Shown here: positions 30,260-58,613 of the stretch, one piece after another
Layout of the letters: each line of letters begins with the position of its first letter
Position numbering within the stretch: position 1 is the first letter of the stretch
DNA from: Gammaproteobacteria bacterium
Lineage (GTDB): Bacteria > Pseudomonadota > Gammaproteobacteria > Eutrophobiales > Eutrophobiaceae
DNA: 64,000 nt
Direction of reading: 5' to 3'
NCBI GenBank assembly: GCA_965226155.1
Contig: OZ245331.1
Location: forward strand, 1,082,605-1,146,604
Made by a program: the position numbers and the translations under genes
Notes under the pieces: model-generated
What the model saw: only the letters and a program-made list of their open reading frames with translations
Told to the model about the DNA's origin: nothing
Databases searched by the model: none

Positions 30260-30373
30260 ACGACTACTGACACACAATTGTTGCAGTTAACAGCCGATCG
30301 ATGTCGTTGGTTTCGTGTGAAACAGGGTTTGGTACAACCTGTATCACAACAAACTTGTTCTGATATAAATTGA

Positions 30374-32788
<2,415 letters not shown>

Positions 32789-38716: not shown

Positions 38717-40308
<1,592 letters not shown>

Positions 40309-41919: not shown

Positions 41920-41986
41920 TAACCAAATCATCGGTTTAATTTTTTCGGAGCAGGCCGATAATGGAAGCCACTATTTTGTCAGTACC

Positions 41987-42073
41987 GGTTTCGTGCTGAG
42001 AGAATCGATCAAGCACCCGACGAAACACCTGATCTTTCATGTGGTGGCGTCCGAGGTATTCAATTCGAGGATG
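41987..42073 (+). pseudogene. Orphan 5' fragment of an actB-like gene (29 codons, no start), inverted partial copy of the actB1 N-terminus
   Basis: Translates GFVLRESIKHPTKHLIFHVVASEVFNSRM*, versus ActB1 GFMLRESIKHPTEYLIPHVMAPEDFSTGI. About 80% nucleotide identity to 49691-49775 (opposite strand), including 31/33 identical at 41975-42010. Confidence 0.7.
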
Positions 42074-42110
42074 TAACCCGACTGTTTTTCTTCATATTTG
42101 TATACTGGTT

Positions 42111-42296
42111 TTAGATGTATCTGCTTATAAACCCTATCCCCAACAGAACAAGCAACAGGACAGCTAAAGCTACCCGAATGCTCAGTGAAATAACAGTTCG
42201 CTCCGTCTTGCCGTGGTCCCGCACCAGAAAATAGAGACCGCCGCCCAGACTGACAAGAATTCCAAACATCACAAGTATAATAAGAAGGTTTAACAT
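42111..42296 (-). CDS. Twin-transmembrane-helix small protein (DUF2909 family), copy 1
   Basis: 61 aa, two hydrophobic helices separated by RDHGKTERT; family typically sits between coxC and SURF1; paralog at 55886-56131. Confidence 0.6.
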   Translation of the reverse strand: MLNLLIILVMFGILVSLGGGLYFLVRDHGKTERTVISLSIRVALAVLLLVLLGIGFISRYI

Positions 42297-42469
42297 TTTG
42301 TTACGGAGCGTGATGCGGCTTCAAAGAATTAAGGACACAGAATGGTGTAATGAATTATCGAAGTCAAACTGACCGTTGCCCCTTAGGGCGACAGCCACCA
42401 GCCACACTCGAAATACCCGTAGATTTGATTGACTCACACAGTCACCGTATAGGTCAGACACCAATTATG

Positions 42470-43054
42470 CTAACGATCTGAAGCGCGAAGCAACCGCTTT
42501 AGATCATCGAGTGCGCCATGCCCGTCTTCACTAGGGGGATAGGTCAAAACGATGCGCCCCCGATAATCGACGATGAGTAATGCTATATTGAGCTGCGGCT
42601 CGCCCGTAGCGCGACGCAGTGCACCGATGAGCTTGCCGTCTGTAGGCAATAGCCAGGGTTGCCCACGCGGGATTTGCGCATCGTCTTCAGGGCCGAGCGA
42701 GACCAAGGCAACACGGTTTATGTCGCGTCCCACCGCGACCTGGATACGCTCGGCAATCTGCAACAAGGTCTGACACGGCTCAGTGCAGTAGGCATCGTGC
42801 AACACCACTAGAAACCAGTCGCGTGCGGCAGCGTCCACAGTGAGCTCCGCACCAGCAGCGTCCATGACACCATAAGATTTCAGGTGTAACGGCGGTTGTA
42901 ATAGCATGCCGTGATTGACGGTATTTACCGGGCGCCAGTCGAGTGGCCCCACAGCAAATAGCCATGCGAGTACTATCGGTAGCGCGAACACCGTTACGAT
43001 CACCAACAAGGTGCGGCGCCCCTTCGTTTGCACTTCCTGTTCCGGCGCGTTCAA
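42470..43054 (-). CDS. Membrane-anchored thioredoxin-fold protein with CxxxC motif (SCO-like, PA0112-like family), island copy
   Basis: 194 aa; N-terminal TM; YCTEPC motif; clear paralog of 56983-57558 (shared LxVLH/LYLV-C-x3-C and C-terminal LIVDYRGRIVLTYPPSEDGHGALDDLKRLL vs LYLIDPLGNLMMFYPSETDPNGILKDLIRLL). Confidence 0.55.
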   Translation of the reverse strand: MNAPEQEVQTKGRRTLLVIVTVFALPIVLAWLFAVGPLDWRPVNTVNHGMLLQPPLHLKSYGVMDAAGAELTVDAAARDWFLVVLHDAYCTEPCQTLLQIAERIQVAVGRDINRVALVSLGPEDDAQIPRGQPWLLPTDGKLIGALRRATGEPQLNIALLIVDYRGRIVLTYPPSEDGHGALDDLKRLLRASDR

Positions 43055-43152
43055 GGCGTGATTGCTTTAGCGCTAAGTAGCGTGACTCCGCCGACCAAAG
43101 CAGTTAGTGGAAAACCGATTCTCGGCACTTTTCGTCGCACTATCACGTGCGA

Positions 43153-44394
43153 CTATGGGCGGATGCTGGTACGGTCCGGATCGCCGTCGAATGTTCCAGC
43201 CGTGTCGGGCCGCAAGTTTATCTCCCAGTATGAGAACAGGGGTAATCGCCTGGCGAGAATAACAACCATAGCAAGGAAACCGGCCAACAGCCCAATCGAC
43301 AGGCCCACGTTCAGCAAATTATCGAGCGGACGATCATTGGGTGAGAAAACCGGAATGACCATCAGGTACTTGTTTATCCAGATACCCAGGTTGATGCCGA
43401 GTCCGATGATACACATCGCCAATAACGATCGATTAAAGATGGCGAAAATTAAGGCGATAAAGGGGACGAAGAAACAGCCGGCCATCATGGTCCAATAATA
43501 AGGCGCGTAATGTCCGTACATTTGGCGCCACAAGGGTTCGGTTTCGTGGGGCAGGTTGCCAAACCAAATCACAAAGAACTGAGCCCAGAAAAAATACAGC
43601 CACAACAGCATAAAGGCGGTGATCAACATGCTGAGTTGACGGATTTGGCGGGGTCCAAAGTAGGATCCCGCTGTTGAGAAACGGCCAAGAATCACCGGGA
43701 TCACCATCAGCGCAGCCGTCCCCGCATACAGGTTACCGAACCAGAAGTGAATCGGAAACACGGTACTGTGCCAGTGTGGAATAAGCATCATGGCGAAATC
43801 CCAGGCAAAAAAAGTGTTACAGATTACGAAACTGATCAGAACCAGAGGTGACAATAAATAAAGTTGGCACGCTACTTCACGATGGTCGACATCATGCGAT
43901 CCCGCAAGATCGGGCCGTATGGCCTTTACAACGTAGACTGTACTCAGTCCGTAGAACAATAACAGGCCAAAGAGTTGCCTCAACAACAACCAGTTACTGT
44001 TCAACCATGGACTAAGATGTTCGTCAGGGGAGGCCGAGAGCCAATAGAAGAGATCTTCTTTGGCGTAGTAATAAATCAGCAGGAAGCCCAAGATGGCGAA
44101 CGGGAAAAACGCCATGGTGCTGAGCTCGGCGACCCGATAGTAAGGCTTGGACCATTCTGCGCCGACCAGGCGGCAGATGGCGCAAAATACAACGCCAGCC
44201 TGGCTCACGCCCATGAGAAATAGAAACGAAACGATAAGCAAACCAAACTCGGGCTGAATAGTCTCATTAGTCGCCCCGTAAACGGGACCTGCAAATCCTA
44301 CAAGGGTCAATGCGATTAGCGCCCAATGCGCAACATTGCCTCGTTGACGTGGCAGAGGGTGCTGGACGATTACTGAGGACTGTTCGGCGCTCAT
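43153..44394 (-). CDS. actF: Alternative Complex III subunit ActF (NrfD/PsrC-like polytopic membrane subunit)
   Basis: 413 aa with ~10 TM segments; last gene of the actABCDEF series; NrfD-like topology. Confidence 0.65.
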   Translation of the reverse strand: MSAEQSSVIVQHPLPRQRGNVAHWALIALTLVGFAGPVYGATNETIQPEFGLLIVSFLFLMGVSQAGVVFCAICRLVGAEWSKPYYRVAELSTMAFFPFAILGFLLIYYYAKEDLFYWLSASPDEHLSPWLNSNWLLLRQLFGLLLFYGLSTVYVVKAIRPDLAGSHDVDHREVACQLYLLSPLVLISFVICNTFFAWDFAMMLIPHWHSTVFPIHFWFGNLYAGTAALMVIPVILGRFSTAGSYFGPRQIRQLSMLITAFMLLWLYFFWAQFFVIWFGNLPHETEPLWRQMYGHYAPYYWTMMAGCFFVPFIALIFAIFNRSLLAMCIIGLGINLGIWINKYLMVIPVFSPNDRPLDNLLNVGLSIGLLAGFLAMVVILARRLPLFSYWEINLRPDTAGTFDGDPDRTSIRP

Positions 44395-44930
44395 TGGTTC
44401 CCAAACTGGTGTTTAACGTAATTGATGACGTTCCACCGTTCCTCCGCGTTTAACGCGTCACGGTAGAACGGCATCAGCTCCCGACCGCGCGTGAGCGTAA
44501 AGAACATCTGCCCGTCGGCCTGGTCCTGAGTATAGTCATCATTAAAGTCCACCGGGGCTTTGGTGATAAATTTTTTCCCGACCGGTCCTTCGCCTCGGCC
44601 TTGTGGGCCGTGACAGACTAGGCAGTTCATCTCGTAGAGATACTTCCCCCGGGCCAGTGATTCTACGGTCGCGGGCACTGGATTTGGCACTGCCGCCGCT
44701 GCATCCTTGGCCTCGTCCATGCCGACATTGGTCGTTGGCGCCGGCAGGGTTTCGCCGCCCACGATGGGAACCGAACCGGGCTCCGCGGGCGCCGGTGATC
44801 TCTGAGGTTTGGCTCCCGGCTGATCGACCATGTCCTGATCCCAGGGATAGCCCCAGCTGAGACCCGTCTGGCCTAATAGCAGCAATACCGTGATAGCACG
44901 GATAAACCTCTTTACAGCTTCTCTCATCAA
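44391..44930 (-). CDS. actE: Alternative Complex III subunit ActE (monoheme cytochrome c)
   Basis: 179 aa; signal peptide; single CxxCH (CLVCH); 4-nt overlaps with both neighbours. Confidence 0.7.
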   Translation of the reverse strand: MMREAVKRFIRAITVLLLLGQTGLSWGYPWDQDMVDQPGAKPQRSPAPAEPGSVPIVGGETLPAPTTNVGMDEAKDAAAAVPNPVPATVESLARGKYLYEMNCLVCHGPQGRGEGPVGKKFITKAPVDFNDDYTQDQADGQMFFTLTRGRELMPFYRDALNAEERWNVINYVKHQFGNQ

Positions 44931-45436
44931 TTCTCCTCCACCATTTCCCGGACCTGTTCAGCGCCGGCCTCACGCAGGATGGCTTCAGCGTGTTTGAAGT
45001 GTTCGTCGTCGTAGGCCACCATCACTGCAAATTTGTCGACCGCCGTTTCCGGCGCGTAGACGCGGTTGCGGATAGCGGGCAGCCGTGAGCTGATAAAAAA
45101 GCCCAGTACCGTAAACACGATGCCGAACAAGATGGTCATTTCGTAAGTAATAATCAAATACGGAGGCAAGGTAATGATGGGTCGACCACCGGTTGGGTGC
45201 GGATAGAGCACGGCGGTGCCCGCTGCAAGTACAAAGCCCGATATGCCGCCGATCAGTGCACCAAAAAATGTAAAGTGCTTGATCACGGATTTTTTCTCAC
45301 CGAGCACTTCTTCCACACCCTCAACCGGGACCGGCGACATAAGCTCCGGGGTGGCAAAGCCGGCGCCTTTGAGCTTGCCCGCCGCTGCCAGGGCCGAGCG
45401 AGGTTCGTTAAAGAGTCCTAGAGCAATGTTTGTCAT
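44927..45436 (-). CDS. actD: Alternative Complex III subunit ActD (DUF3341-like membrane protein)
   Basis: 169 aa, two TM helices; position between actC and actE. Confidence 0.65.
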   Translation of the reverse strand: MTNIALGLFNEPRSALAAAGKLKGAGFATPELMSPVPVEGVEEVLGEKKSVIKHFTFFGALIGGISGFVLAAGTAVLYPHPTGGRPIITLPPYLIITYEMTILFGIVFTVLGFFISSRLPAIRNRVYAPETAVDKFAVMVAYDDEHFKHAEAILREAGAEQVREMVEEN

Positions 45437-46779
45437 GCAGGACTCCGATGGACGGCGGCCGTGGCCTTGGGGGTGTCCATGGTTTCCTTCACTTCGTACA
45501 TAGACACACTGGGAAATATCTTGACGAACAGAAGAAACAGCGTCACGAATAGCGTGAGAGACCCTACCAAAATCGAGATCTCAACCAGACTGGGTACGTA
45601 CAGGCCCCAGGCGTCCGGTAGGTATTGCCGCGACAGCGAGGTGGCGATAATGAGGAAACGCTCCGTGTACATGCCGATATTAATTGCAATCGACAATATC
45701 AGCATGGGCACGAACGAGGTTCGAAAGCGCTTGAATATGCACAGTAGCGGCGCTACCGCGCAGAACGCAATCATCTCCCAGTACAATGGGGCGTAATAAC
45801 CGAATAATTTATACCTCAGCGCTTCGTGCTCGGTGGAAGTGCCGCTATACCAGCCGGTAAATAGCTCGATCACATTGATATAGGTCCAGATCAACGAAAG
45901 CATTAGCAACAGTTTACCCAGATTGTCGAAATGGATTTTGGTGATGTATTGTTCGAAGTTCATATATTTTCTGAGTACGAACATCACCGTGACGATACCG
46001 GCAGTGCCGGAGTAGATGGCGCCGACCACGAAATACGGTGCAAAGATGGTCTGGTGTAGCGCCGGCACGATGGACATGGCGAAATCCCAGGAGACGATGC
46101 TGTGCACCGAGACCGCCAGTGGAATGATGAGGACCGCGAGAAACGTGTAGGCCCAATGTAAGCGGTGCCATTCCTTGTCAGTTCCACGCCAGCCCAGGGA
46201 CAGCAAGGTATACATGTGGTTGCGCCAGCCGCTGGTGCGATCTCTGACCGCGGCGAAATCTGGGATGGAACCCATATAAATGAAGATTGAACTACCTGTC
46301 AGATAGGTGGTGATGGCCATGACGTCAAACAGCAATGGAGAGCGAAAATTAGGCCACATTTCCATTTGATTAGGATAGGGCAGTGCCCAATGAATGAACC
46401 ATGGACGCCCAACGTGCACCATCACCATGGTAGCAGCCACCATCAGTGAAAAAAGCGTCATGGCCTCTGCGCTTCGATACATAGCTTTACGCCAAGAACT
46501 ATTGGTCAGGTGCAGAACGCAGGACAGCAAAGTGCCTGAATGGCTGAGGCCTATCCAAAAGACAAAGCTGGCGAGATACGTTCCCCAGACTCCGGGGTGA
46601 TTCATCCCAGCCGCGCCAATGCCATAATAGAGCTGATAGAACCAGGGGAAAAAGAAGCACAGTAGGGTTATGCTGCCAGCGATCGCTAGCGTGACATAAT
46701 AGTTGGGACCCGTTTCCAAAATGGACCTTACAACGTCCTGGTGGACGTCGGCGTACTGCAAGTCGTTCGTTTTAGCCAT
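45433..46779 (-). CDS. actC: Alternative Complex III subunit ActC (NrfD-family quinol-interacting membrane subunit)
   Basis: 448 aa polytopic NrfD/PsrC-like protein immediately after the FeS subunit. Confidence 0.75.
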   Translation of the reverse strand: MAKTNDLQYADVHQDVVRSILETGPNYYVTLAIAGSITLLCFFFPWFYQLYYGIGAAGMNHPGVWGTYLASFVFWIGLSHSGTLLSCVLHLTNSSWRKAMYRSAEAMTLFSLMVAATMVMVHVGRPWFIHWALPYPNQMEMWPNFRSPLLFDVMAITTYLTGSSIFIYMGSIPDFAAVRDRTSGWRNHMYTLLSLGWRGTDKEWHRLHWAYTFLAVLIIPLAVSVHSIVSWDFAMSIVPALHQTIFAPYFVVGAIYSGTAGIVTVMFVLRKYMNFEQYITKIHFDNLGKLLLMLSLIWTYINVIELFTGWYSGTSTEHEALRYKLFGYYAPLYWEMIAFCAVAPLLCIFKRFRTSFVPMLILSIAINIGMYTERFLIIATSLSRQYLPDAWGLYVPSLVEISILVGSLTLFVTLFLLFVKIFPSVSMYEVKETMDTPKATAAVHRSPA

Positions 46780-46781
46780 AG

Positions 46782-47546
46782 TTACACTTTTTCGTCAACT
46801 TTTTTCAGGTAGACGATGGACGGGTCGGTGTTCAGCTCGTCCAACACTCGATAGCCGCGTGGATCATTCATCGATTTGGAAACTTGACTTTCTGGATCCT
46901 TGCGATCACCGAAGACCAAGGCTTGGGTGGGGCAGGTCTGTACACAGGCCGGTTGAACCTCGCCGTCGCGCACTCGCCTACGGCCGTCGTCTTTGGCGGT
47001 ATCTTTGGCCTGGCGGATGCGCTGGATGCAGAAGGTGCATTTCTCCATCACTCCCTTTTCGCGCACAGTCACGTCGGGATTCAATTGCTGGTCCAGCGGG
47101 CTGTCCCAGTGATGATCGTTGTAATTGAAGTAACGGACCTCATAGGGACAATAGACCGCACAAGAGCGGGTTCCAATACAGCGATTGTAGATCTGGGTGT
47201 TGAGACCGTCCTGGTTGTGATAGGTGGCGCTTACCGGACACACCGTCTCGCACGGCGCCGAATCACAGTGTTGGCATAACATCGGGATGAAGCGAAGCTT
47301 GACGTTAGGGTACTCCCCCTCCCAGTAGCGTTCGATCCGGATCCACTTCACCTCTCTGCCCTTGGCGAACGCCTTCTCGCCGACGATGGGTAGATTATTC
47401 TCAGCCTGACAGGCGGTCACACAAGCCTCGCAGCCGGTGCATCGATCGAGGTCGATGGTCATCGCCCAGTGGTAGTCGAATTCGTCGTAGTAGCCGGGCT
47501 TTCGGTATTTCCGCCAGCTGTTGGTAAATCGGTCCAGTAAGCTCAT
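46782..47546 (-). CDS. actB: Alternative Complex III FeS subunit ActB2 (4Fe-4S ferredoxin-type)
   Basis: 254 aa with multiple Cys clusters (CTGCEACVTAC, CQHCDSAPCETVCP, CIGTRSCAVYCP, CTFCIQR) typical of the PsrB-like FeS module. Confidence 0.8.
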   Translation of the reverse strand: MSLLDRFTNSWRKYRKPGYYDEFDYHWAMTIDLDRCTGCEACVTACQAENNLPIVGEKAFAKGREVKWIRIERYWEGEYPNVKLRFIPMLCQHCDSAPCETVCPVSATYHNQDGLNTQIYNRCIGTRSCAVYCPYEVRYFNYNDHHWDSPLDQQLNPDVTVREKGVMEKCTFCIQRIRQAKDTAKDDGRRRVRDGEVQPACVQTCPTQALVFGDRKDPESQVSKSMNDPRGYRVLDELNTDPSIVYLKKVDEKV

Positions 47547-49831
47547 GTTGATACCACCGTTATTGGGATACTGTTCAGTTTAGCGCTAGCATTCTGGCGA
47601 GTTGTGCCACCAGTTGTTGGCACGATCTCTCTGCCCAGTTCGCGCGAGTTACCGCCGGTCTTCACCAGATCGACCCGGCGCCCGGTGGCAACGATCTTCA
47701 CCCGCGTGGCGCTCGAAGCAAGTCCGCCCGTGTGTGGTTCCATCTGCGGGCTAAGGATTTCAATCGGGTTGGCGCCGCGGTCTTTAGCATAGCGGCCGTA
47801 TTCGCTGTGACCTTGTCCAATAGGCATCGCGATGACGTCGGGCATGATGGCTGGATAAATGTAAACCGGCGCACGGATCTGCCCGTGTTCGGACTCAATG
47901 TCGACCAAAGCCCCCTCCGTTAAACCTAGCTGCTTCGCAGTAGCCGGATTAATTTCCACCCAGGACCCGTAGACCACGCTGGTCAGAGGGTCCGGTAGTT
48001 CCTGCATCCAGGGCAAATTAGCAGCACTGCCATCATGCAAGGCAGTTGAAAGATAAGGGTGCAGGATAAACGGATACTCTTCAATTGACCCAGAAAATTC
48101 GGGGGGCTGGACGCCAATGCTGTCAATGACACCTTTGTCTATGGTAATTGATGACTCGCGGCGTGTTGTTTCTCCCCATACGCCGGCCTTTAGGATCGCC
48201 GTCCAGAACAAATCGAAACTTTCCGTACCTGTTTGTGGACCACCGCGCTCGTAGATCTGGCGCCAACTGTCCTTTATATAATCTTCCATGCTGCTCCACG
48301 GGATTGCGTTACTTAAGCCCAGCTGTTGCGCTAGACTCAGGATAATGTCTCCGGTCGCTCGGGTGTTGTACAGGGGCGATACTACCGGTTGCGAGACGGC
48401 GCCGATGCGGAAACCCACACCCGGTTCCGGAAAGTCGTCGCCCCAGCTTTCCAGGTAAGTGTGGCTCGGTAGGATCAAGTCTGCTAGCACCGTGGTTTCA
48501 TCCAGGAAACTGGACAAGCTGACAACCAGCGGTATCTTAGTCAGCGCCTCTTTGAACCCGACCACCAATGGCATAGTAAATACCGGGTTGGTGTCATTGA
48601 GGATCAAAACCTCGATGTTGCCCTGCTGCGCATCCTCAGCGAGTTCGAGCATCGTACGATAACTGGCTTGGCGCTGGTGAGAGACCTGGCCTGCGGTTAC
48701 TGGGTTGAACACCAGCCCACCTGTCTTGCCGATGTTGTCAACCAGATAATTGAGTGCATTGACCGCAACCAAGTTGTCGACACCATTGGTATTGCTACCC
48801 GCGCCTCCGCCGCCAATGGCAAGGCTAGGGTCGGTGTGAAAAAACGTGTCGGCCAACCGGGTGATGGTGGCCTCCGGGACGTCGGTCTGTTCGGCCACCT
48901 TGGGAGCCGAGTAATCGGCAAGTATAGCTACCCAGTCGTCGTGATCGGCTCCCTGGTAGAGGCCTTTGGAGACTATATGGTGGGCCAGGCCCAGGGCCAA
49001 AATACCCTCCGTGCCGGGTCTGCTAGCAATCCACTCATCTGCAGCAGCGCCGCTTAGAGACATCCTCGGTTCGATCTGAACAAACTGCCCCCTGATATCG
49101 GGCCGGCCCTGGCGGCTGTCGCCATAGCCGAGGCTGTGATGCACGGGGGAAATCCAGCTTCCGAGGAAATCGGCCCCGAAAGACAGCAGAAAACGGGTAT
49201 TTTTTAAATCGTAATAAGGCAGGTTCTTCTCACCAAAGAATCGGTTGTTGGCCTCATACAAGGTATGCGGATGGTCAAAATCGTAGTGCAGCAGACGTTC
49301 GGAGCCCAGTTGGCCCATAAATCGTTCAAATAGTTGCGCCAGATTTCCGCGGACACCCTGGCTCAGCAAACAAACGCGGTTGCCCCGCCCTGCAGCTACT
49401 AACAAGTCCAGGCGCTTAGCGAGTTTGCTTAAGCCCTCTTCCCAGGTGATTTGCGCGAAGGACATGGAGCCGCGCTCTGCAGTTTGTTGCAACGGACCAG
49501 TCAATCGATCTGGGTTGTACAAGACTTGAAGTCCTGACTGGCCCATGGCGCAAAGCCGGCCCTGGTTGACAGGATGCGAAGGATTGCCTTCAATCTTTTT
49601 GGCGCGTCCTTCTCGGGTCCGTACGGAGATACCACAACCAGCCGTACACATCTGGCATACTGAGTTATACCATGTGGCGATTCCAGTGCTGAAGTCCTCG
49701 GGCGCCATCACATGAGGGATCAGATACTCCGTCGGGTGCTTGATTGATTCTCTCAGCATGAACCCGGCACCTGCCCCTACGCCTGCGGCGCCAACCAGCT
49801 TGAGAAATTCTCTGCGTTCTATATTTGGCAT
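47543..49831 (-). CDS. actB: Alternative Complex III subunit ActB1 (molybdopterin-oxidoreductase-like domain, Tat signal)
   Basis: 762 aa; twin-arginine signal RREFLKLVGAAGVGAGAG; MopB-like fold; split B1/B2 arrangement. Confidence 0.8.
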   Translation of the reverse strand: MPNIERREFLKLVGAAGVGAGAGFMLRESIKHPTEYLIPHVMAPEDFSTGIATWYNSVCQMCTAGCGISVRTREGRAKKIEGNPSHPVNQGRLCAMGQSGLQVLYNPDRLTGPLQQTAERGSMSFAQITWEEGLSKLAKRLDLLVAAGRGNRVCLLSQGVRGNLAQLFERFMGQLGSERLLHYDFDHPHTLYEANNRFFGEKNLPYYDLKNTRFLLSFGADFLGSWISPVHHSLGYGDSRQGRPDIRGQFVQIEPRMSLSGAAADEWIASRPGTEGILALGLAHHIVSKGLYQGADHDDWVAILADYSAPKVAEQTDVPEATITRLADTFFHTDPSLAIGGGGAGSNTNGVDNLVAVNALNYLVDNIGKTGGLVFNPVTAGQVSHQRQASYRTMLELAEDAQQGNIEVLILNDTNPVFTMPLVVGFKEALTKIPLVVSLSSFLDETTVLADLILPSHTYLESWGDDFPEPGVGFRIGAVSQPVVSPLYNTRATGDIILSLAQQLGLSNAIPWSSMEDYIKDSWRQIYERGGPQTGTESFDLFWTAILKAGVWGETTRRESSITIDKGVIDSIGVQPPEFSGSIEEYPFILHPYLSTALHDGSAANLPWMQELPDPLTSVVYGSWVEINPATAKQLGLTEGALVDIESEHGQIRAPVYIYPAIMPDVIAMPIGQGHSEYGRYAKDRGANPIEILSPQMEPHTGGLASSATRVKIVATGRRVDLVKTGGNSRELGREIVPTTGGTTRQNASAKLNSIPITVVST

Positions 49832-49843
49832 AACATTCTTCTC

Positions 49844-50416
49844 TTACTTATGACAAGTCCAACAATCCAGGCCGTTCTCTACCTCATGTTGCTTGTGGCA
49901 GTTGAGGCACAAACCCATTTCCCAAGGACTGTCCAGCTGGATAGATCCATCAATTGCCCTGCTGGTCACATGAATTTTGTCCATGGTTTCAACGGGTCCG
50001 TGGCAGGTTTGGCACTCAATGCCTGCCAATACGTGGCGTTTATGAGTGAAGTGAACGAAATCTGGCAGATCATGAACTTTGATCCAGGGGATGGGCTCTT
50101 TATTGTCCCAGTAGCTGATTAGTTTGCGTATCTGTGGCCGCTCCGTTGCGACCTCGTTGTGACAACCTACACATTTTGAGACGCTGGGGACCCCGGCGTT
50201 TATGGAACGGCGCGCCTGGGTATGACAATACATGCACTGGATCTCATTGTCGCCAGCGTGGACCTTGTGGCTGAACGCGATAGGTTGTTCCGGGCTAGTG
50301 CCCGGAAAGAACGCCGCGTTTGCCCAATAGCCTCCCACCAGACCGAGCAATACGGCGGTGGTTACCAGTGCCGCTGGCTTTAGTACTCTTAATGCCGGGA
50401 CAATTGAAACGTTCAT
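49844..50416 (-). CDS. actA: Alternative Complex III subunit ActA (pentaheme cytochrome c)
   Basis: 190 aa with N-terminal TM anchor and five CxxCH motifs (CMYCH, CVGCH, CQTCH, CLNCH, CWTCH). Confidence 0.8.
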   Translation of the reverse strand: MNVSIVPALRVLKPAALVTTAVLLGLVGGYWANAAFFPGTSPEQPIAFSHKVHAGDNEIQCMYCHTQARRSINAGVPSVSKCVGCHNEVATERPQIRKLISYWDNKEPIPWIKVHDLPDFVHFTHKRHVLAGIECQTCHGPVETMDKIHVTSRAIDGSIQLDSPWEMGLCLNCHKQHEVENGLDCWTCHK

Positions 50417-50761
50417 CTATTCCGCGCTCCGAGTTACCAAACCCAGGGTTTCTCCAAACCCGTCACCGAACTCGTGGATCGAGCTGGCCATGTCCGCATT
50501 CTTTGTTGCCCGTAAATAAGTGTCAGCCATCTTATGAATTACTTGGTAGAAATAGAGGTTCATGTCGTCGACGGTCGTATCTTTAATCCATAGATCGATC
50601 GCGGCAGTCGTCTTGTTTTCGTTGTCCCAGACTGAAAGCATCATCGACTGACATAAAACCGGGCCGTTTTCTTGCCCCTCTGAGGCTTGCCATTCGATTC
50701 GAGTTGGCAAATCGTCGCTGTCAAGGTCGACGGTCAATTTGATTTCTGCAGTTCTTGACAT
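50417..50761 (-). CDS. Small acidic cytoplasmic protein, possibly GldC-like (low confidence), between coxC and actA
   Basis: 114 aa; no TM or signal; resemblance to GldC-family proteins (IKLTVDLD...RIEW...MLSVWD...IDLW.KD...MADTY.RAT) recalled from memory, not searched. Confidence 0.4.
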   Translation of the reverse strand: MSRTAEIKLTVDLDSDDLPTRIEWQASEGQENGPVLCQSMMLSVWDNENKTTAAIDLWIKDTTVDDMNLYFYQVIHKMADTYLRATKNADMASSIHEFGDGFGETLGLVTRSAE

Positions 50762-50813
50762 TAATTTTATTCTATTCGCTTGTTTTTAACGTTGTGTTTG
50801 TAAGCAGATTCTT

Positions 50814-51698
50814 CTAAAACCAGTATACAAATGTAAAAAGAAATAGCCATATCACATCCACGAAGTGCCAATACCAGCTCACAGCTTCAAAGGCGAAATG
50901 GTTTTCCGGGGTGAAATGGCCACTGAAACAACGCAGCAACATGACAGTCAGCATGATCGTTCCCATGGTTACATGCACGCCGTGGAACCCGGTCAGCATA
51001 AAGAAGGTCGAGCCGTAAATTCCAGCTCCCAGATTCAGGCCCAACTCGTTGTAGGCATGGATGTACTCAACGGCCTGCAAGGTCAGGAAGGTCGCGCCCA
51101 GAACTACGGTAATAGCTAGCCAGATTTGTAACGGTAATCTTTGGTTTTTTCTTAGTGCCCAATGAGCAAACGTGACCGTGACGCTACTGGTGACCAGAAT
51201 GACAGTATTGATAAAGGGCAGACCCCACGCCTCCATCGCCTCGGTAGCATCGCCGCTGGGGGTCATAAACAGCGGCCAGGTATCTGCGAAGTTGGGCCAT
51301 AACAGCACGTGTGTTTCCAGATTATTGCCCGCTCCGGCCAGCCATGGTACAGAAATGATCCGGGCGTAAAAAAGCGCACCGAAAAACGCGGCGAAGAACA
51401 TGACTTCTGAAAGAATGAACCAGGCCATGCCCATGCGATAGGTACGGTCGAGCAAATTACTGTTCATGCCTTTGACAGATTCCCTGATGACGGTCCCAAA
51501 CCAGCCGAACATCATGAACGCGACCAGGGCCAGTCCGGTGTAGAAGATCGGTTCCCCGTAACTGCCATCGGCTGTGACCTTTTCAGTGCTCTGGTGGATG
51601 AAGGTGGCGCCACCGAAGGCGGTCACAAACAGCGCAATAGACCCGATAATGGGCCAGGGGCTGGAGTGTGGGACGTAGTAGCGGGGCGCTTCACTCAT
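50814..51698 (-). CDS. coxC: Cytochrome c oxidase subunit III (intact, high-GC copy)
   Basis: 294 aa, 7 TM, conserved HFVDVIWLFLF C-terminal region. Confidence 0.9.
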   Translation of the reverse strand: MSEAPRYYVPHSSPWPIIGSIALFVTAFGGATFIHQSTEKVTADGSYGEPIFYTGLALVAFMMFGWFGTVIRESVKGMNSNLLDRTYRMGMAWFILSEVMFFAAFFGALFYARIISVPWLAGAGNNLETHVLLWPNFADTWPLFMTPSGDATEAMEAWGLPFINTVILVTSSVTVTFAHWALRKNQRLPLQIWLAITVVLGATFLTLQAVEYIHAYNELGLNLGAGIYGSTFFMLTGFHGVHVTMGTIMLTVMLLRCFSGHFTPENHFAFEAVSWYWHFVDVIWLFLFTFVYWF

Positions 51699-52267
51699 TG
51701 CTGATCACTCGCAAGCATCGCAACAGTGCTCGTGGTCTGAACTGTAGGCACCTTGTACAGGGCATAAGACAAACTGAGGGTATGGATCTCCTTCGGTAGA
51801 TCGTCGCCGATATAAAACCTCACGGGCATCCGCCGATCTTCACCATCCTCTAGGAGTTGTTGAGTGAAGCAAAAACATTCAATTTTATGCAGATACTCAG
51901 CAGCGTAACCCGGCGCCACGCTGGGCACGGCTTGTCCAGTCACCGCCTGAGTGGCGAGGTTACGGGCGTAGTAGTCAGTGCTGTTGATTTCCCCCAGTCG
52001 AACCCGCAGCTGATTTTCTGTTGGCCGAAACTCCCATGGCATGCCGTTACCGACGTGGGCCAGGAACTGGATCGTCACTTTGCGATCAGAGATTTGCGAG
52101 ACTATGGCGGGGTCAGCCGCGCGCCCGGCGGTTTTGCCGTTCAGCCCGGTCACCTCGCAAAAGAGCTCGTAAAGCGGCACCAGGGCGTAAGCAAACCCAA
52201 ACATACCGAAAGCCAGCAAAGAAAGCAGAATTACATGCTTACGCTGATTGTTGCGTGTCTCAATCAT
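51695..52267 (-). CDS. ctaG: Cytochrome c oxidase assembly protein CtaG/Cox11 (high-GC copy)
   Basis: Start set at MIETRNNQ (ATG 52265-52267), 5 nt after the coxA stop; CFCF motif; the longer ORF to 52402 overlaps coxA. Confidence 0.8.
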   Translation of the reverse strand: MIETRNNQRKHVILLSLLAFGMFGFAYALVPLYELFCEVTGLNGKTAGRAADPAIVSQISDRKVTIQFLAHVGNGMPWEFRPTENQLRVRLGEINSTDYYARNLATQAVTGQAVPSVAPGYAAEYLHKIECFCFTQQLLEDGEDRRMPVRFYIGDDLPKEIHTLSLSYALYKVPTVQTTSTVAMLASDQQ

Positions 52268-53906
52268 CGACAGGCGTTCCTGTTCGATGATACGGGGGTT
52301 CCCCCGTTGACCACGCATCCATAATCGGAGGGAATGGCGGTGGCGTCTCGAACGTGTGATGTGGTGCCGGAGACGGCACTGTCCACTCCAAACCGTCCGC
52401 ACCCTCCCAAACCTGGGCGCTTGCCGGCTCCCCGCCGCGTATGGTCTTGATCACGATGTACAGGAACAAGACCTGTGTCAGGCCCAGCAGTCCGGCGCCG
52501 ACGCTGGAAACCATGTTGAAATCCGCAAATTGCAGGGAGTAATCTACAATCCGCCGGGGCATGCCGGCAAGCCCCGTAAAATGCATTGGGAAAAAGGTCA
52601 GGTTGATCGCGATCACCGCCGTCCAGAAGTGAATCTGGCCCAGCCGCTCATCGTACATGTGGCCAGTCCACTTGGGTAGCCAGTAATACACCCCCGCCAT
52701 GGTGCCGAAGATGGCGCCGGGATATAAAACGTAGTGGAAGTGTGCCACCACAAACATGGTGTCGTGATATTGAAAATCGGCCGGCACGAGGGCCAGCATA
52801 AGCCCGGAGAAACCGCCAATGGTAAATAATATGACGAAGCCGAGGGCAAACAACATGGGTGTTTCAAAGGTCATGGAGCCGCGCCACATGGTGGCCACCC
52901 AGTTGAACACCTTCACCCCGGTGGGGACGGCGATCAACATCGTCGCGTACATAAAGAACAATTCAGCCACCAGTGGCATGCCGGTGGTGAACATGTGATG
53001 CCCCCAGACAATAAAGGACAAAATTGCGATCGAAACAGTCGCGAACACCATGGAATGATAGCCGAACAGCTTCTTGCGGGCGAACGTGGGGATGATCTGT
53101 GAGGCGACGCCAAAACCCGGCAGGATTAAGATGTAGACCTCCGGGTGTCCAAAGAACCAGAAAATGTGCTGAAACATAACCGGATCGCCGCCGCCCGCCG
53201 CATTAAAAAAACTGGTGCCGAAATGACGGTCGGTGAGCATCATGGTGACCACCCCGGCCAACACCGGCATGACCATGATGAGCAGGAAGGCAGTGATTAA
53301 CCAGGTCCAGACGAATAGGGGCATTTTCATCAACGTCATGCTCGGCGTGCGCAGATTGAAGACGGTGATAATGATGTTGATGGCGCCCAGTACCGATGAA
53401 ACTCCCATCATGTGGACACCGAGAATAAAGAAATCGGTGCTCGGCGGCCCATAGGTGGTAGATAGGGGTGCGTAAAAAGTCCAGCCGAAATTAGGTGCGC
53501 CGCCTTCCATAAAGAGCGACGAGAGTAACAGGGTGAAGGCGAAGGGCAGGATCCAGAAACTGAAATTATTCAGCCGCGGCAACGCCATGTCGGGCGCGCC
53601 TATCATCAACGGGATCTGCCAATTGGCCAATCCAACGAAGCCGGGCATCACTACGCCGAATATCATGATCAGCCCGTGCATAGTCACCATCTGATTGTAG
53701 AAAAGCGGGTCTGTGAATTGGATTCCGGGTTGGAACAACTCCAAACGGATAACCATCGCCATTGCCCCGGCAATAAAAAACAGTGTCAGACTGAGACACA
53801 GATACAGAGTGCCGATCTCCTTGTGGTTGGTGGTCAGTAACCAGCGGGCGAGAAACGCCAGCAGCCGAGAGCGATGTGGAATTACGTCTTCTGCGTGTGT
53901 AACCAT
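52260..53906 (-). CDS. coxA: Cytochrome c oxidase subunit I (intact, high-GC copy)
   Basis: 548 aa, 12 TM; heme/CuB His ligands in conserved blocks (GHPEVYILILPGFG, HHMF, VAHFHYVL). Confidence 0.95.
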   Translation of the reverse strand: MVTHAEDVIPHRSRLLAFLARWLLTTNHKEIGTLYLCLSLTLFFIAGAMAMVIRLELFQPGIQFTDPLFYNQMVTMHGLIMIFGVVMPGFVGLANWQIPLMIGAPDMALPRLNNFSFWILPFAFTLLLSSLFMEGGAPNFGWTFYAPLSTTYGPPSTDFFILGVHMMGVSSVLGAINIIITVFNLRTPSMTLMKMPLFVWTWLITAFLLIMVMPVLAGVVTMMLTDRHFGTSFFNAAGGGDPVMFQHIFWFFGHPEVYILILPGFGVASQIIPTFARKKLFGYHSMVFATVSIAILSFIVWGHHMFTTGMPLVAELFFMYATMLIAVPTGVKVFNWVATMWRGSMTFETPMLFALGFVILFTIGGFSGLMLALVPADFQYHDTMFVVAHFHYVLYPGAIFGTMAGVYYWLPKWTGHMYDERLGQIHFWTAVIAINLTFFPMHFTGLAGMPRRIVDYSLQFADFNMVSSVGAGLLGLTQVLFLYIVIKTIRGGEPASAQVWEGADGLEWTVPSPAPHHTFETPPPFPPIMDAWSTGEPPYHRTGTPVDD

Positions 53907-53918
53907 TAGTAAGTCACC

Positions 53919-55106
53919 TTAACGGGCCGCGTAAATGGTTCTGGGTTGAACGACATCACCTATATTGTTACCCCAGGCATTGCGCTCATAGGTAATCACG
54001 GCGGCGATGTCGCGATCGGATAACTGTGGTGCCCAGGCTTGCATCTCGGTATCGGCCAAACCAAACATAACGCGATCGAGATGCGCCGCTAGGGGTCCTG
54101 TGGGGATCTCACCGCCGGCCAATGCTGGATACGTGATGCCCTGGCCCCTGCCATCTGCCTCATGACAGGTCGAGCAATGTTCCAAAAAGACCTGCTCGCC
54201 GATCACCATGAGCTCCGCCATATCCCATTCCTTTGCCCGGTCGGCCACCGCTTGTCCTGAGGCGAGCTCCTTGGCGATTCGTTGATCTTCGATCCACTGA
54301 TCGAATTCGGCCTCCGGTTTCACTTCCACGACGACTGGCATAAAGGAATGGTCTTTGCCGCAGAGTTCGGCACATTGACCCCGATACAGCCCCGGTTCTC
54401 CGACCCGTGTCCACGCCTCGTTGATATACCCTGGAATCGCATCCTGCTTTACAGCAAAGTCCGGCACCCACCAGGAGTGAATGACGTCGTTGGAGGTCAC
54501 AAGGAAACGAACCTTCTTATTAGTGGGCAGCACCAGGGGATTGTCCACCTCAAGCAAATAGTTCTCGCCCTTGGGTTCGAGGTTGTTGATCTGTGCCTCA
54601 GGCGTAGTTATGTTGCTGTAGTAACCGATGTCCGCTTCAATATATTGATAGTGCCATTTCCACTGAGAGGCGGTGATGAGGATGGTGAGATCCGCATCGC
54701 TGTTGTCTTCGATGTCTATTAGCGCCGTGGTCGCTGGTATGGCCATGCCGACCAGGATCAAGACTGGGATTACGGTCCATATGACTTCCGCTACGGTGCT
54801 CTCATGAAAGTCAGCGGGTTGTGGGTGCCTCGAGCGCCGATGGGCGAAGATGGAGTAGAACATGGCGCCGAAGACAATGACACCGACAACTACGCAGATC
54901 CACAGACTCAGTTGGTGCAGCCTCTGAATAGTCTGGCTCATTTCGGTGACACCTACACGTAAATTGTACACGGCGGCTAAGACGGTATGGGAGTAACCCC
55001 ACAAGAGACAGAGCATCAGACCGCGCTTGAGCTTGTTGGTGATAGGACTCACTTTTCTAGCCCAATTGTTATTTATTATCAGCATTAAATTAAGGCGACC
55101 TTTCAA
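53919..55106 (-). CDS. coxB: Cytochrome c oxidase subunit II with C-terminal cytochrome c domain (caa3-type)
   Basis: 395 aa; CuA motif CAELCGKDHSFM, C-terminal CSTCH heme c site. Confidence 0.92.
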   Translation of the reverse strand: MKGRLNLMLIINNNWARKVSPITNKLKRGLMLCLLWGYSHTVLAAVYNLRVGVTEMSQTIQRLHQLSLWICVVVGVIVFGAMFYSIFAHRRSRHPQPADFHESTVAEVIWTVIPVLILVGMAIPATTALIDIEDNSDADLTILITASQWKWHYQYIEADIGYYSNITTPEAQINNLEPKGENYLLEVDNPLVLPTNKKVRFLVTSNDVIHSWWVPDFAVKQDAIPGYINEAWTRVGEPGLYRGQCAELCGKDHSFMPVVVEVKPEAEFDQWIEDQRIAKELASGQAVADRAKEWDMAELMVIGEQVFLEHCSTCHEADGRGQGITYPALAGGEIPTGPLAAHLDRVMFGLADTEMQAWAPQLSDRDIAAVITYERNAWGNNIGDVVQPRTIYAAR

Positions 55107-55513
55107 CGTCTCAATTGGGCCGGTGTTCGTAGCTGATTTTCACCCTTCCAATCACGGTAGCGGATGGCGGTCACACGTTCGGCGGCGCCTTTCCAATCAC
55201 CTCGATGGGCCAGCAAAAACGTGTCCATGTCGATTTTCGCCTGCCACGGCCTGCCTTCCCAGTCGATAAACGCCAGGCTGGCATTGGCATGGCCGCTCCA
55301 TTGTCCTTCATTCTGAGGCCGTTGTTCAAAGGCATCATCACGAATCCAGGCAGTCCACTTTTCACCGTTCCAGGACACAAACTCCATTGAATTTTGTGCC
55401 CACGGTTGGTTAGCAGGCCCGGCTCCAGTGTCGATCGTTGCATCGAACGTCAGCTTAGCCGCCACAATAGTCGCTAGCACAGCCAGCGACAGACCCAAAA
55501 CAACTTTGATCAT
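55103..55513 (-). CDS. Secreted protein with two internal ~37-aa repeats, first gene of the cox-act operon
   Basis: 136 aa; signal peptide MIKVVLGLSLAVLATIVAA; repeats SMEFVSWNGEKWTAWIRDDAFEQRP / SLAFIDWEGRPWQAKIDMDTFLLAH; 4-nt overlap with the coxB start. Confidence 0.55.
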   Translation of the reverse strand: MIKVVLGLSLAVLATIVAAKLTFDATIDTGAGPANQPWAQNSMEFVSWNGEKWTAWIRDDAFEQRPQNEGQWSGHANASLAFIDWEGRPWQAKIDMDTFLLAHRGDWKGAAERVTAIRYRDWKGENQLRTPAQLRR

Positions 55514-55885
55514 TGAACCCCCAGATCACATTGGCATGCAAGGTGCCGAGCTTGGTATTGATGCATAGAGTTGCCGCAATCGACAGCATTCTTTTGTCGC
55601 CACGACCAGTAAAGTACTGTTGGGAAGCGCTCAGTTCTGCCAGAATTGCAGTCTCCACATCATTTTAAGCAGGGTAGGAAGGTAACTGCAGTTCGTATCC
55701 AAGTCAATAATTTCATTAAATTAGCGGATCTAGGTATTTAATCAAAACTTAACGTGAGATATTTCCCTTAAAAAATACGCCTAAATGTTGATATTATTCA
55801 ATAAGTTTTAAAACTGAATACTGCTTCGGAAACCAAACGGATTAATGTCAGTAATCTTACAAATTAAGTTTGGACAGGTAATATT

Positions 55886-56950: not shown

Positions 56951-56982
56951 TGACCCTATAAAAGACGGGAAAAAATAGACTA

Positions 56983-57558: not shown

Positions 57559-57580
57559 TAGCTGATTACAGAAAAAAATT

Positions 57581-58588: not shown

Positions 58589-58613
58589 ATGGAGAGGGTT
58601 TAAAATTCGACAT

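Follow-up and report, generated by a model that had tools for sequence, protein, structure and literature searches.

A foreign Alternative Complex III–caa3 oxidase cassette, probably acquired horizontally, inside the decaying aa3 oxidase cluster of a gammaproteobacterium

How does a gammaproteobacterium come to hold, at one locus, an intact set of terminal oxidase genes rich in guanine plus cytosine (GC) and the broken remains of another set? The locus lies in a stretch of 64,000 nucleotides (nt), here called the window, which covers positions 1,082,605 to 1,146,604 of contig OZ245331.1 (assembly GCA_965226155.1, Gammaproteobacteria bacterium, Eutrophobiaceae). On the minus strand of the window, positions 42,096–55,662 form a 13.6-kilobase (kb) cassette of 15 intact, co-oriented genes with a common 5' leader of about 150 nt. 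The cassette, or island, is predicted to encode an Alternative Complex III (ACIII) together with a caa3-type oxidase, and on either side of it stand the genes of the host's own aa3 oxidase cluster, in which coxB, coxA and coxC are pseudogenes. We put at roughly 85% the probability that this ACIII–caa3 cassette was acquired horizontally into the host aa3 cluster and then took over from the native oxidase.

Searches of Pfam, NCBIfam and PDB recovered every gene that an earlier note on this DNA had named, all of them intact, for a total of 15 when the terminal DUF2909 gene is counted. The cassette carries the features of an ACIII: an NrfD-type ActC, ActB1 and ActB2 modules, a pentahaem ActA, a monohaem ActE, ActD and ActF. 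ActA (190 amino acids, aa) matches chain A of the solved complexes 8k9e, 6btm, 6f0k and 6lod at expect values (E) of 1e-24 to 1e-32, ActB1 matches chain B of 8k9e, 6f0k, 6lod and 6btm, and ActC matches chain C of 6lod, 6f0k, 6btm and 8k9e near full length at E = 1e-100 to 1e-102. From these homologies, ActA, B1, B2, C, D, E and F are predicted to form an ACIII with quinol:cytochrome c oxidoreductase activity. The features of a caa3 oxidase were also found, namely the ligands and helices of subunit I, a CuA site with a fused cytochrome c domain, and available genes for haem A supply. CoxA scored 706.5 against TIGR02891 (cutoff 670.75), its PF00115 match spans positions 2–434 of 436, and it has a GHPEV motif, which we take to be the glutamate motif of A1-type oxidases. 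CoxB scored 198.9 against TIGR02866 (cutoff 147.7) and combines the CuA motif H…CAELC…H…M with one CxxCH at residue 311. The proposal of an ACIII–caa3 quinol-to-oxygen chain survives through these Act matches and oxidase family scores. Two labels were refined: the gene listed as a small acidic protein is present and is now identified as GldC-like (PF19937), and the gene listed as a SCO-like CxxxC protein is also present, with a CTEPC motif and a match to the PA0111/PP_0108 redox-active disulfide family (PF26971 in relatives).

The cassette is set apart from its surroundings by composition. GC content per 1-kb window ranged from 0.492 to 0.567 over 42,001–55,000 (mean 0.536, n = 13) and from 0.390 to 0.485 outside the island (mean 0.439, standard deviation 0.024, n = 50), with no overlap between the two sets (Mann-Whitney p = 1.8e-8). 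GC in the island is 9.7 points higher, short of the 12–15 points first estimated. The gap at third codon positions (GC3) is larger, at about 20 points, with a mean of 0.625 for the 15 island genes (0.50–0.71) versus 0.421 for 33 host genes (0.33–0.50; p = 2e-8). Codon choice is shifted as well: ATC accounts for 0.58 of isoleucine codons in the island versus 0.28 in the host, and CTG for 0.36 versus 0.18 of leucine codons. Uniform GC and codon usage, which the earlier note had named as speaking against lateral acquisition, is thus not what the sliding-window and codon analyses gave. Both edges show the sharp change that had been described, GC rising from 0.43–0.47 at 42.0–42.4 kb to 0.59 at 42.5 kb and falling from 0.53 at 55.4 kb to 0.29 at 55.7 kb, and GC skew is 0.001 within the island versus +0.09 and +0.13 in the flanks. 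We set the edges, at about 42,096 and 55,662, from the extent of nucleotide homology to the cassette copies of two other genomes, L028 and L029; bounds of 42,300–55,680 had been roughly right, but on the left the homology widens the cassette. The position close to the origin was borne out, with mnmE and yidC homologues, dnaA, dnaN, recF and gyrB at 22.7–32.8 kb, a cumulative GC-skew minimum at 27–28 kb and the origin near dnaA at about 26.5 kb. The 15-gene run lies about 15 kb from dnaA and is head-on to replication; the plus strand holds every host gene between 26.6 and 41.9 kb except a small DZR_2 gene (32,920–33,480). To call the site part of a conserved core region proved too simple, as the host's own aa3 cluster surrounds it, with coxC on one side and DUF2909 on the other. 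The decay of native coxB, coxA and coxC beside the island had been overlooked, as had a second, native DUF2909 gene; the DUF2909 gene originally listed does belong to the cassette.

Native coxB, coxA, ctaG and coxC lie to the left of the island on the plus strand (37.5–41.9 kb); to its right is native DUF2909 on the minus strand, followed by SURF1, a PA0111-family gene, ctaA and ctaB, and these assembly genes (56204..59519) have host-like GC3 of 0.40–0.45. Lesions were called by alignment to the intact genes of L033 (coxB, 357 aa; coxA, 531 aa; coxC, 291 aa; and ctaG), a 75-kb Joint Genome Institute (JGI) metagenome contig that represents the closest relative found (GyrB 94% identical in aa; 91.3% nt identity over 16.5 kb). 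Five frameshifts interrupt the three catalytic genes. In coxB, 4 base pairs (bp) are deleted at 38,084; coxA has gained 1 bp at 38,909 and lost 4 bp at 39,401 and 1 bp at 39,886; and coxC has lost 1 bp at 41,364. The same alignment showed zero frameshifts in dnaA, dnaN, gyrB, bioB, bioF, bioC, bioD and ctaG. Four of the five are present in strains from other samples (99.1% nt identity): the coxB lesion in L120 and L121, and in the assembly L030 as well, the coxA lesions at 38,909 and 39,401 in L120 and L121, and the coxC lesion in L120. Two independent Logan assemblies (L030 and L031) reproduce the window version of the lesions. L120 and L121, which come from two other samples, have both also lost 1 bp in the part of coxB that encodes the cytochrome c domain (window-equivalent 38338), and L120 has private lesions of its own, a GAG→TAG nonsense change in native ctaG (window-equivalent 40733) and an extra insertion in coxC. 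These additional lesions in sister strains indicate that decay of the native cluster is ongoing and polymorphic.

We considered whether the frameshifts might be sequencing errors and rejected this, as two of them remove 4 bp and two more are not in homopolymer runs. Their clustering in recF, coxB, coxA and coxC and the recurrence of four of the five cox lesions in other samples speak against errors as well. Compared with L033, the coxB, coxA and coxC pseudogenes retain ratios of nonsynonymous to synonymous divergence (dN/dS) of 0.08–0.11, indicating that inactivation was recent.

The locus of the closest relative lacks the cassette. L033 is collinear with the window up to 41,983, where cassette-related sequence starts, and then carries different genes; native coxB, coxA, ctaG and coxC are all intact in it. 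At the site of the island, on the opposite strand (L033:16530-17326), it has a COX4_pro gene and a short CyoC/QoxC-like subunit III gene. No ActB1 from the 75-kb contig was present among the close ActB1 clusters. A search for SURF1 homologues returned no full-length SURF1 from the L033 lineage, an 88%-identical fragment on a TARA marine contig (L119) ending before the junction, and one metagenome scan with the CyoC-like protein of L033 found 80 other loci and not the L033 contig beyond 17,326. GC3 is 0.44–0.48 in the native, functional cox genes of L033 versus 0.64 for the cassette, and since these values are host-like, gene function or expression does not explain the compositional bias of the cassette. 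We also fetched 24 distant gammaproteobacterial loci by means of SURF1; coxC is directly upstream of SURF1 in 22 of the 24, mostly with a DUF2909 match in between, and none of the 24 has act genes. A scan of GTDB genomes with SURF1 gave no match above 43% identity. Because most of the distant loci keep the order coxC–DUF2909–SURF1, the insertion can be placed at the convergent coxC/DUF2909 junction.

A more distant relative, L032, does have the cassette. Its GyrB and ActB1 are each 85% identical to those of the window, and its copy has the same locus and orientation, between native DUF2909–SURF1–ctaA–ctaB and native ctaG–bioD–bioC, with a GC content of 0.52 versus 0.42–0.43 in the flanks. A deletion in L032 (a 2.6-kb alignment gap) has removed native coxA and the 3' portion of coxB, and no intact coxC was called. 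The native catalytic genes have therefore decayed in every sampled lineage with the cassette at this site and are intact in the sole lineage without it. Synonymous divergence (dS) of host genes is about 0.30 between the window and L033 and 0.85–1.34 (about 0.98) between the window and L032 in the flanks. For the cassette genes, window–L032 dS is 0.39–0.72 (mean about 0.57) and nonsynonymous divergence (dN) is 0.04–0.16. As a separate observation, L032 carries an orphan, full-length proteobacterial bc1 Rieske gene (L032:17811-18404, minus strand; TIGR01416, 204 bits) at the left junction of the island, where it replaces most of an ActB1-like relic that is present in the window.

Cassettes that keep this gene order and are 84–86% identical in nt were found in other genomic contexts (L028, L029 and L117). 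The L028 copy lies among dioxygenase and amidohydrolase genes, the L029 copy adjoins a polA gene that is itself 64% nt identical to polA of the window, and the L117 copy ends at an IS240-type transposase gene (L117:18738-19193) directly after DUF2909. About 30 ninety-percent ActB1 clusters are at least 80% identical to the ActB1 of the window; only three GyrB clusters reach this level, all from the host's own lineage. In the genome that carries L117, GyrB is 71% and ActB1 81% identical. Atypical composition, patchy presence and a similarity to distant genomes that exceeds that of host genes serve as the operational marks of horizontal acquisition, and the cassette has all three. The suggestion in the earlier note that the block was acquired laterally as a unit is thus supported by composition, by its absence from L033 and by its other genomic contexts. 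The note had also proposed looking for the block at this locus in relatives: the nearest one found lacks it, and L032 has it as a segment that is still compositionally foreign. An IS30-type transposase gene (L028:20602-21762) was also seen about 3 kb from the L028 cassette.

Where the cassette came from can be approached through its composition in different hosts. In L116, which comes from a 4.59-megabase contig, the cassette (GC 0.58, GC3 0.74) matches its surroundings: flank GC is 0.55–0.60, and GC3 is 0.71–0.78 in three of the four flank genes. Cassette GC3 falls from 0.74 in L116 through 0.69 in L029, 0.69 in L117, 0.67 in L028 and 0.64 in the window to 0.59 in L032, and host genes of the low-GC recipients have GC3 of 0.41–0.51; this declining series suggests that amelioration is under way. 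Neighbour joining of 3,957 concatenated codons grouped the cassettes of the window and L032 as sisters (170/200 bootstraps) within a clade that includes L028 (200/200); L029 and L117 form another clade, and L116 is the outgroup. Composition therefore points to a GC-richer gammaproteobacterial lineage as the probable donor, an L116-like genome of 55–60% GC being the best compositional match. In L117 we further noted that the GC-rich tract extends upstream to genes for a cyclic nucleotide-binding (cNMP-binding)/FAD reductase, a multihaem cytochrome and DUF4426, and the same three are upstream in L116.

The junctions retain traces of rearrangement. At the left junction, a relic resembling ActB1 codons 22–48 (approximately) translates to GFVLRESIKHPT… versus GFMLRESIKHPT… in ActB1; next to it, a relic of about the last 19 codons of a cassette-type CoxC translates to …FIFVYWF* versus …FTFVYWF* in CoxC, its stop overlapping the stop of the cassette DUF2909 gene. 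The CoxC-like relic also occurs in L032. At the other partner of this inverted repeat (42,061–42,132 versus 50,796–50,867), an 18-nt relic of a DUF2909 3' end lies just downstream of cassette coxC. DUF2909 is in its canonical convergent position directly after coxC in L116, and this order explains the coxC/DUF2909 relic pair but not the ActB1 fragment. In the window-type cassette, DUF2909 thus appears to have been moved and inverted to the distal end. No integrase was found among the 15 cassette genes with Pfam and NCBIfam, a tRNA/tmRNA scan and Rfam at gathering thresholds found nothing in the whole window, and the island edges have no terminal repeats or target duplications, with the two relic repeats as the only repeats. 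The marks of a classical genomic island or integrative element (an integrase, a tRNA or att target, flanking direct repeats) were thus not found. Further to the right, an IS30-family transposase gene (HTH_38 and rve; 60290-61102, minus strand, with the frame running on to about 60120) has an in-frame stop and a GC content of 0.51, higher than the host. We considered this gene (60.3–61.1 kb) as a vehicle and rejected it, as it is a pseudogene; with 33% identity to the IS30 transposase of L028 and six native genes between it and the island, it is probably unrelated to the arrival of the island.

Several points weigh against acquisition followed by takeover, and most of them bear on other accounts of the locus. 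One is that the integrase, tRNA and terminal repeats that could point to a mechanism of integration were not found. Insertion of a self-mobile unit, such as an integrative element or composite transposon, by its own recombinase could draw on the transposases near the copies, of IS240 type after L117, of IS30 type beside L028 and, as a pseudogene, 4.6 kb from the window island; however, the same missing marks at the window island, together with the dissimilarity and distance of the IS30 genes, make this account improbable. Another point is that, of the five other contexts examined, four have a cassette with a higher GC content than its flanks, which makes some contribution from codon selection possible. 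An old resident operon, a paralogous oxidase and ACIII whose high GC3 was kept by selection, for example on expression, would fit this pattern and would fit a cassette that is intact and conserved. We nevertheless regard it as very improbable, because the cassette is missing from L033 and from the 24 other gammaproteobacterial cox loci, has unrelated locations in L028, L029 and L117, and varies far less between genomes than host genes do, and because functional cox genes in L033 have host-like GC3 and cassette and flank GC match in L116. The abrupt edges, in an assembly from an uncultured organism, might also suggest that a GC-rich block from another organism had been joined in by mis-assembly. 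The left junction is reproduced in L030 and L031, in L120 and, in diverged form, in L032, and the right junction in L001, L002 and L032; since both recur in independent assemblies, chimerism is excluded and we give this account virtually no credence. The takeover itself would follow from a correlation between cassette and decay, a decay that the dN/dS of the pseudogenes shows to be recent. Finally, a promoter and terminator scan of 41.8–56.3 kb gave counts no better than those of shuffled sequence, which leaves gene spacing as the basis for a single operon.

The remaining points concern timing. Host genes give the tree ((window, L033), L032). For the island to be in the window and L032 but not in L033, either L033 must have lost it or it must have been transferred a second time, by recombination; moreover, island dS to L032 lies below flank dS, which simple vertical inheritance does not predict. 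One route would be a single ancestral entry before the window, L033 and L032 split, followed by vertical descent, loss of the cassette from L033 and independent inactivation of the native cox genes. The insertion site and CoxC-like relic common to the window and L032, the sister position of their cassettes, native lesions that differ by lineage (frameshifts versus the 2.6-kb deletion), and GC3 values of 0.64 and 0.59, which a cassette starting at about 0.74 could have reached by partial amelioration over a dS close to 1, all agree with this route. It has to contend with the low island dS, with the need for a precise loss in L033, where another oxidase cluster now fills the site, and with long purifying selection on native genes beside the cassette (dN/dS about 0.1 until recently), and we see it as credible at somewhat under even odds. 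The other route would have the cassette first reach the cox locus of a related lineage and then enter the window lineage by homologous recombination after the split from L033, with rapid decay of the native genes. In its favour are the intact native genes and missing cassette of L033, the young pseudogenes of the window, the decay of native cox genes in every sampled lineage with the cassette at this locus, and the low island dS, with a dS of 0.43 for the adjacent native DUF2909 gene, as if it lay within the imported tract. Yet the DUF2909 value comes from only 81 codons, the low island dS could reflect codon-usage constraint, and the donor relative is unsampled: island dS to L032 (0.57) is far above the window–L033 host dS (0.30), so the L032 lineage itself cannot be the donor. 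This recombinational route is also a serious possibility, to which we would give a little less than an even chance. Under either route the cassette is foreign to the window/L033/L032 clade.

Table 1. Positions of cassette genes, junction relics and native aa3 cluster genes in the window.
Feature	Position	Strand	Evidence or remark
Gene 1: 136-aa protein, N-terminal signal/anchor and W-rich repeats	55103..55513	-	no family match
Gene 2: coxB, subunit II with C-terminal monohaem cytochrome c domain (caa3 type)	53919..55106	-	Pfam COX2_TM, COX2, Cytochrome_CBB3
Gene 3: coxA, A-family haem-copper oxidase subunit I, A1 type	52260..53906	-	PF00115 E = 4e-162
Gene 4: ctaG/Cox11 copper chaperone	51695..52402 (longest open reading frame)	-	PF04442 E = 6.5e-48
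Gene 5: coxC, oxidase subunit III	50814..51698	-	PF00510 E = 1.8e-54
Gene 6: GldC-like protein, 114 aa	50417..50761	-	PF19937 E = 3.4e-28
Gene 7: actA, pentahaem cytochrome c with N-terminal membrane anchor	49844..50416	-	five CxxCH motifs
Gene 8: actB1, molybdopterin-oxidoreductase-like subunit, Tat signal RREFLK	47543..49831	-	Pfam Molybdop_Fe4S4, Molybdopterin, Molydop_binding
Gene 9: actB2, four-cluster iron-sulfur subunit	46782..47546	-	Pfam Fer4_11, Fer4_7 and related; cysteine motifs
Gene 10: actC, NrfD-type membrane subunit	45433..46779	-	counterpart is the quinol-binding subunit of solved ACIII
Gene 11: actD	44927..45436	-	PF11821 E = 1.9e-42; matches ActD chains of solved ACIII
Gene 12: actE, monohaem cytochrome c	44391..44930	-	one CxxCH; matches 6f0k_E, 6lod_E, 6btm_E
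Gene 13: actF, second NrfD-like membrane subunit	43153..44394	-	PF03916 E = 3.3e-7; matches ACIII chains F and C
Gene 14: 194-aa CxxxC (CTEPC) membrane-anchored thioredoxin-like protein, PA0111/PP_0108 family	42470..43054	-	
Gene 15: cassette DUF2909, 61 aa, twin transmembrane helices, last gene	42111..42296	-	PF11137 E = 1e-14
Junction relic resembling ActB1 codons ~22–48, inverted relative to island	41982..42062	+	inverted repeat I1, 83% match to 49,690–49,770
Junction relic resembling last ~19 codons of cassette-type CoxC, inverted relative to island	42055..42116	+	inverted repeat I2, 79% match
18-nt DUF2909 3'-end relic just downstream of cassette coxC	50796..50813	+	part of I2
Native coxB pseudogene	37536..38680	+	homology over two reading frames (tblastn); one in-frame stop
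Native coxA pseudogene	38777..40308	+	four frame segments (tblastn); one in-frame stop
Native ctaG, intact	40451..41011	+	PF04442 E = 4e-50; 93% aa identity to L033; dN/dS 0.06
Native coxC pseudogene	41039..41919	+	two reading frames (tblastn)
Native DUF2909, 81 aa	55886..56131	-	PF11137 E = 1.6e-20
Native SURF1, intact	56204..56950	+	Pfam SURF1
Native PA0111-family protein, intact	56983..57558	+	NF058629
Native ctaA, intact	57581..58588	+	Pfam COX15-CtaA
Native ctaB, intact	58551..59519	+	Pfam UbiA

Genes 1–13 of the cassette are separated by 4-nt overlaps to gaps of at most 52 nt, and the last two gaps are 98 and 173 nt; this spacing suggests that the 15 genes would be transcribed as a single operon. 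Two genes would start further downstream if called as in relatives, where coxB is 377 aa, corresponding to a start near 55,052, and the cassette ctaG is 190–192 aa, corresponding to a start near 52,273. The separate actB1 and actB2 genes overlap by 4 nt. The CTEPC protein matches NF058629 at E = 1.3e-15, under the cutoff of that model, and PF26971 is recorded on its orthologues. The cassette DUF2909 protein is 80–87% identical in aa to the product of the last cassette gene in L028, L029 and L032.

By homology to characterised ACIII–oxidase supercomplexes, quinol would be oxidised at ActC/ActF, and electrons would pass through the iron-sulfur clusters of ActB2 to the haems of ActA and on to ActE. 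The quinol of a gammaproteobacterium is probably ubiquinol rather than menaquinol. Within a supercomplex, ActE could then hand electrons directly to the cytochrome c domain of CoxB, from which they would reach CuA, haem a and the haem a3–CuB site, where O2 would be reduced. Neither a bc1 complex nor a soluble cytochrome c would be required for such a chain, and bypass of bc1 is a property of ACIII in general. Electron transfer of this kind has been described for characterised ACIII–oxidase supercomplexes (PMC5928083, PMC8552683).

Among assembly factors, the cassette encodes Cox11 and a CxxxC protein. Synthases for haem O and haem A are not part of it; ctaA and ctaB are missing, and intact native copies lie 2–4 kb to its right. 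SURF1 is found between actF and the CxxxC gene in the L029 and L117 cassettes, and the subtype represented by the window, L028 and L032 has lost it. We propose that native SURF1, ctaA and ctaB would supply haem O and haem A synthesis and assembly for the incoming oxidase. A cassette without SURF1, ctaA and ctaB would explain why the native assembly half survives while the catalytic half decays.

Two cassette proteins stand apart from the known subunits. The 136-aa protein opens all six cassette copies, has no Pfam or NCBIfam match and no meaningful PDB sequence match, and belongs to a very small family, for which a search of 1.84 billion representatives gave about 75 matches at E <= 1e-3. The distant ones among these are multi-repeat proteins, and DUF4751 is present in the five tested. 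The GldC-like protein scored 99.2 against TIGR03515, slightly below the cutoff of 102.15. Its gene abuts actA with a 0-nt gap, its product is 88–91% identical in aa in L028, L029 and L032, and a gene is called at the same position in L116 and L117. A PDB sequence search with the GldC-like protein gave no meaningful match, and single-sequence AlphaFold2 models reached a predicted local distance difference test (pLDDT) score of 49 for the 136-aa protein and 56 for the GldC-like protein, too poor for fold searches. The GldC family owes its name to gliding motility in Bacteroidetes, and our literature search found no paper tying GldC to ACIII. Judging from position and conservation, both genes may encode accessory subunits or assembly factors. 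Two wider readings would be that the coxC/DUF2909 junction is a recurrent exchange point for oxidase modules in related marine gammaproteobacteria and that the GldC-like and 136-aa proteins are unrecognised subunits or assembly factors of ACIII–caa3. The first of these is prompted by the ACIII–caa3 cassettes at the site in the window and L032, the other oxidase cluster in L033 and the orphan Rieske gene in L032; we consider these proposals unlikely. If true, a role for the GldC-like protein in ACIII–caa3 would hint that the GldC family is respiratory and not specific to motility.

Clusters of this general kind are known. Act genes fused to a cox cluster were described as 'COX operon type a-I' in alpha-, gamma- and deltaproteobacteria (Refojo et al., 2010 and Degli Esposti, 2014, summarised in PMC6431628), a type that usually carries A2-type oxidases (PMC6431628). 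ACIII gene clusters are frequently adjacent to oxidase clusters (PMC5928083), and horizontal transfer of ACIII and of haem-copper oxidases has been inferred repeatedly (for example PMC5826079). Like type a-I, which is found in Gammaproteobacteria, the window cassette has act and A-family oxidase genes contiguous and co-oriented, with a SCO/thioredoxin-like copper-assembly gene. Unlike it, the cassette has its cox genes ahead of the act genes, three conserved extras (the GldC-like gene, the gene for the 136-aa secreted repeat protein and DUF2909), and a CoxA assigned from GHPEV to A1 rather than the usual A2, a feature that is typical of the type rather than strictly defining.

The ACIII–caa3 system of Rhodothermus marinus (6F0K; PMC5928083) resembles the cassette in ActA–F, with a pentahaem ActA and a monohaem ActE, in act genes that adjoin oxidase genes, and in a subunit II cytochrome c domain able to take electrons directly from ActE. 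It differs in that its ActB is one polypeptide rather than the products of separate B1 and B2 genes, its ActG and ActH were not found in the window cassette, and its oxidase cluster is downstream of the act genes rather than upstream. The ACIII–aa3 of Flavobacterium johnsoniae (6BTM; PMC8552683) shares homologous ActA–F and direct transfer from ACIII to the oxidase in a supercomplex; in the window, ActA is a short 190-aa pentahaem form and CoxB carries a haem c domain. The canonical gammaproteobacterial aa3 cluster, coxB-coxA-ctaG-coxC/DUF2909/SURF1-PA0111-ctaA-ctaB (the Pseudomonas PA0105–PA0113 type), is the host's own cluster and the recipient of the cassette. The cox half of the cassette has the same gene order, with PA0111-like and DUF2909 genes; however, the cassette has ACIII genes after coxC and no ctaA or ctaB, and the catalytic genes of the host cluster are pseudogenes. 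We therefore see no new kind of system here: oxidase operons fused to act genes are already known, as are ACIII–oxidase supercomplexes and the horizontal spread of both.

The manner of arrival also has a precedent. Omelchenko and colleagues, in 2003, reportedly described gene displacement in situ, in which a xenologue displaces a gene within a conserved gene neighbourhood, and the idea that xenologues can displace resident genes at their own locus is an established one. The locus studied here resembles such cases in that a foreign equivalent sits at the resident locus and the resident copies are then lost. It differs in that fresh pseudogenes next to the incoming genes still mark what was displaced, and in that the incoming unit adds a whole extra complex, ACIII, rather than making a one-for-one swap. 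The sequence of events we propose is that the cassette integrated at the convergent coxC/DUF2909 junction of the host aa3 cluster and would then have displaced the native enzyme, with native coxB, coxA and coxC left to decay.

Two further genes in the window show damage away from the oxidase locus. The recF gene (29279-30380, plus strand) is a pseudogene relative to the intact 366-aa recF of L033, having lost 1 bp at both 29,607 and 29,901, gained 2 bp at 30,073 and acquired one in-frame stop. Neighbouring genes have a dN/dS of about 0.1, compared with 0.31 for recF, and gene calls in L120 show nothing between dnaN and gyrB. The DZR_2 (double zinc ribbon) gene (32920-33480, minus strand) has lost 1 bp at 32,949 compared with L033, encodes 186 aa instead of 229 aa, and may be another decaying gene.

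What the ACIII–caa3 locus offers is a set of unusually well-preserved stages of one event kept together: a foreign cassette, early decay of the native genes, their deletion in a relative, and their intact counterparts in a closer relative. It illustrates how gene transfer can give a bacterium a new catalytic core for its aerobic respiratory chain, with the resident haem A and assembly genes kept, apparently since the incoming oxidase needs them. The locus is a good teaching case for in-situ displacement and for amelioration, and together the lineages provide a natural set of genotypes for asking what ACIII–caa3 offers over the conventional aa3 pathway in marine gammaproteobacteria.

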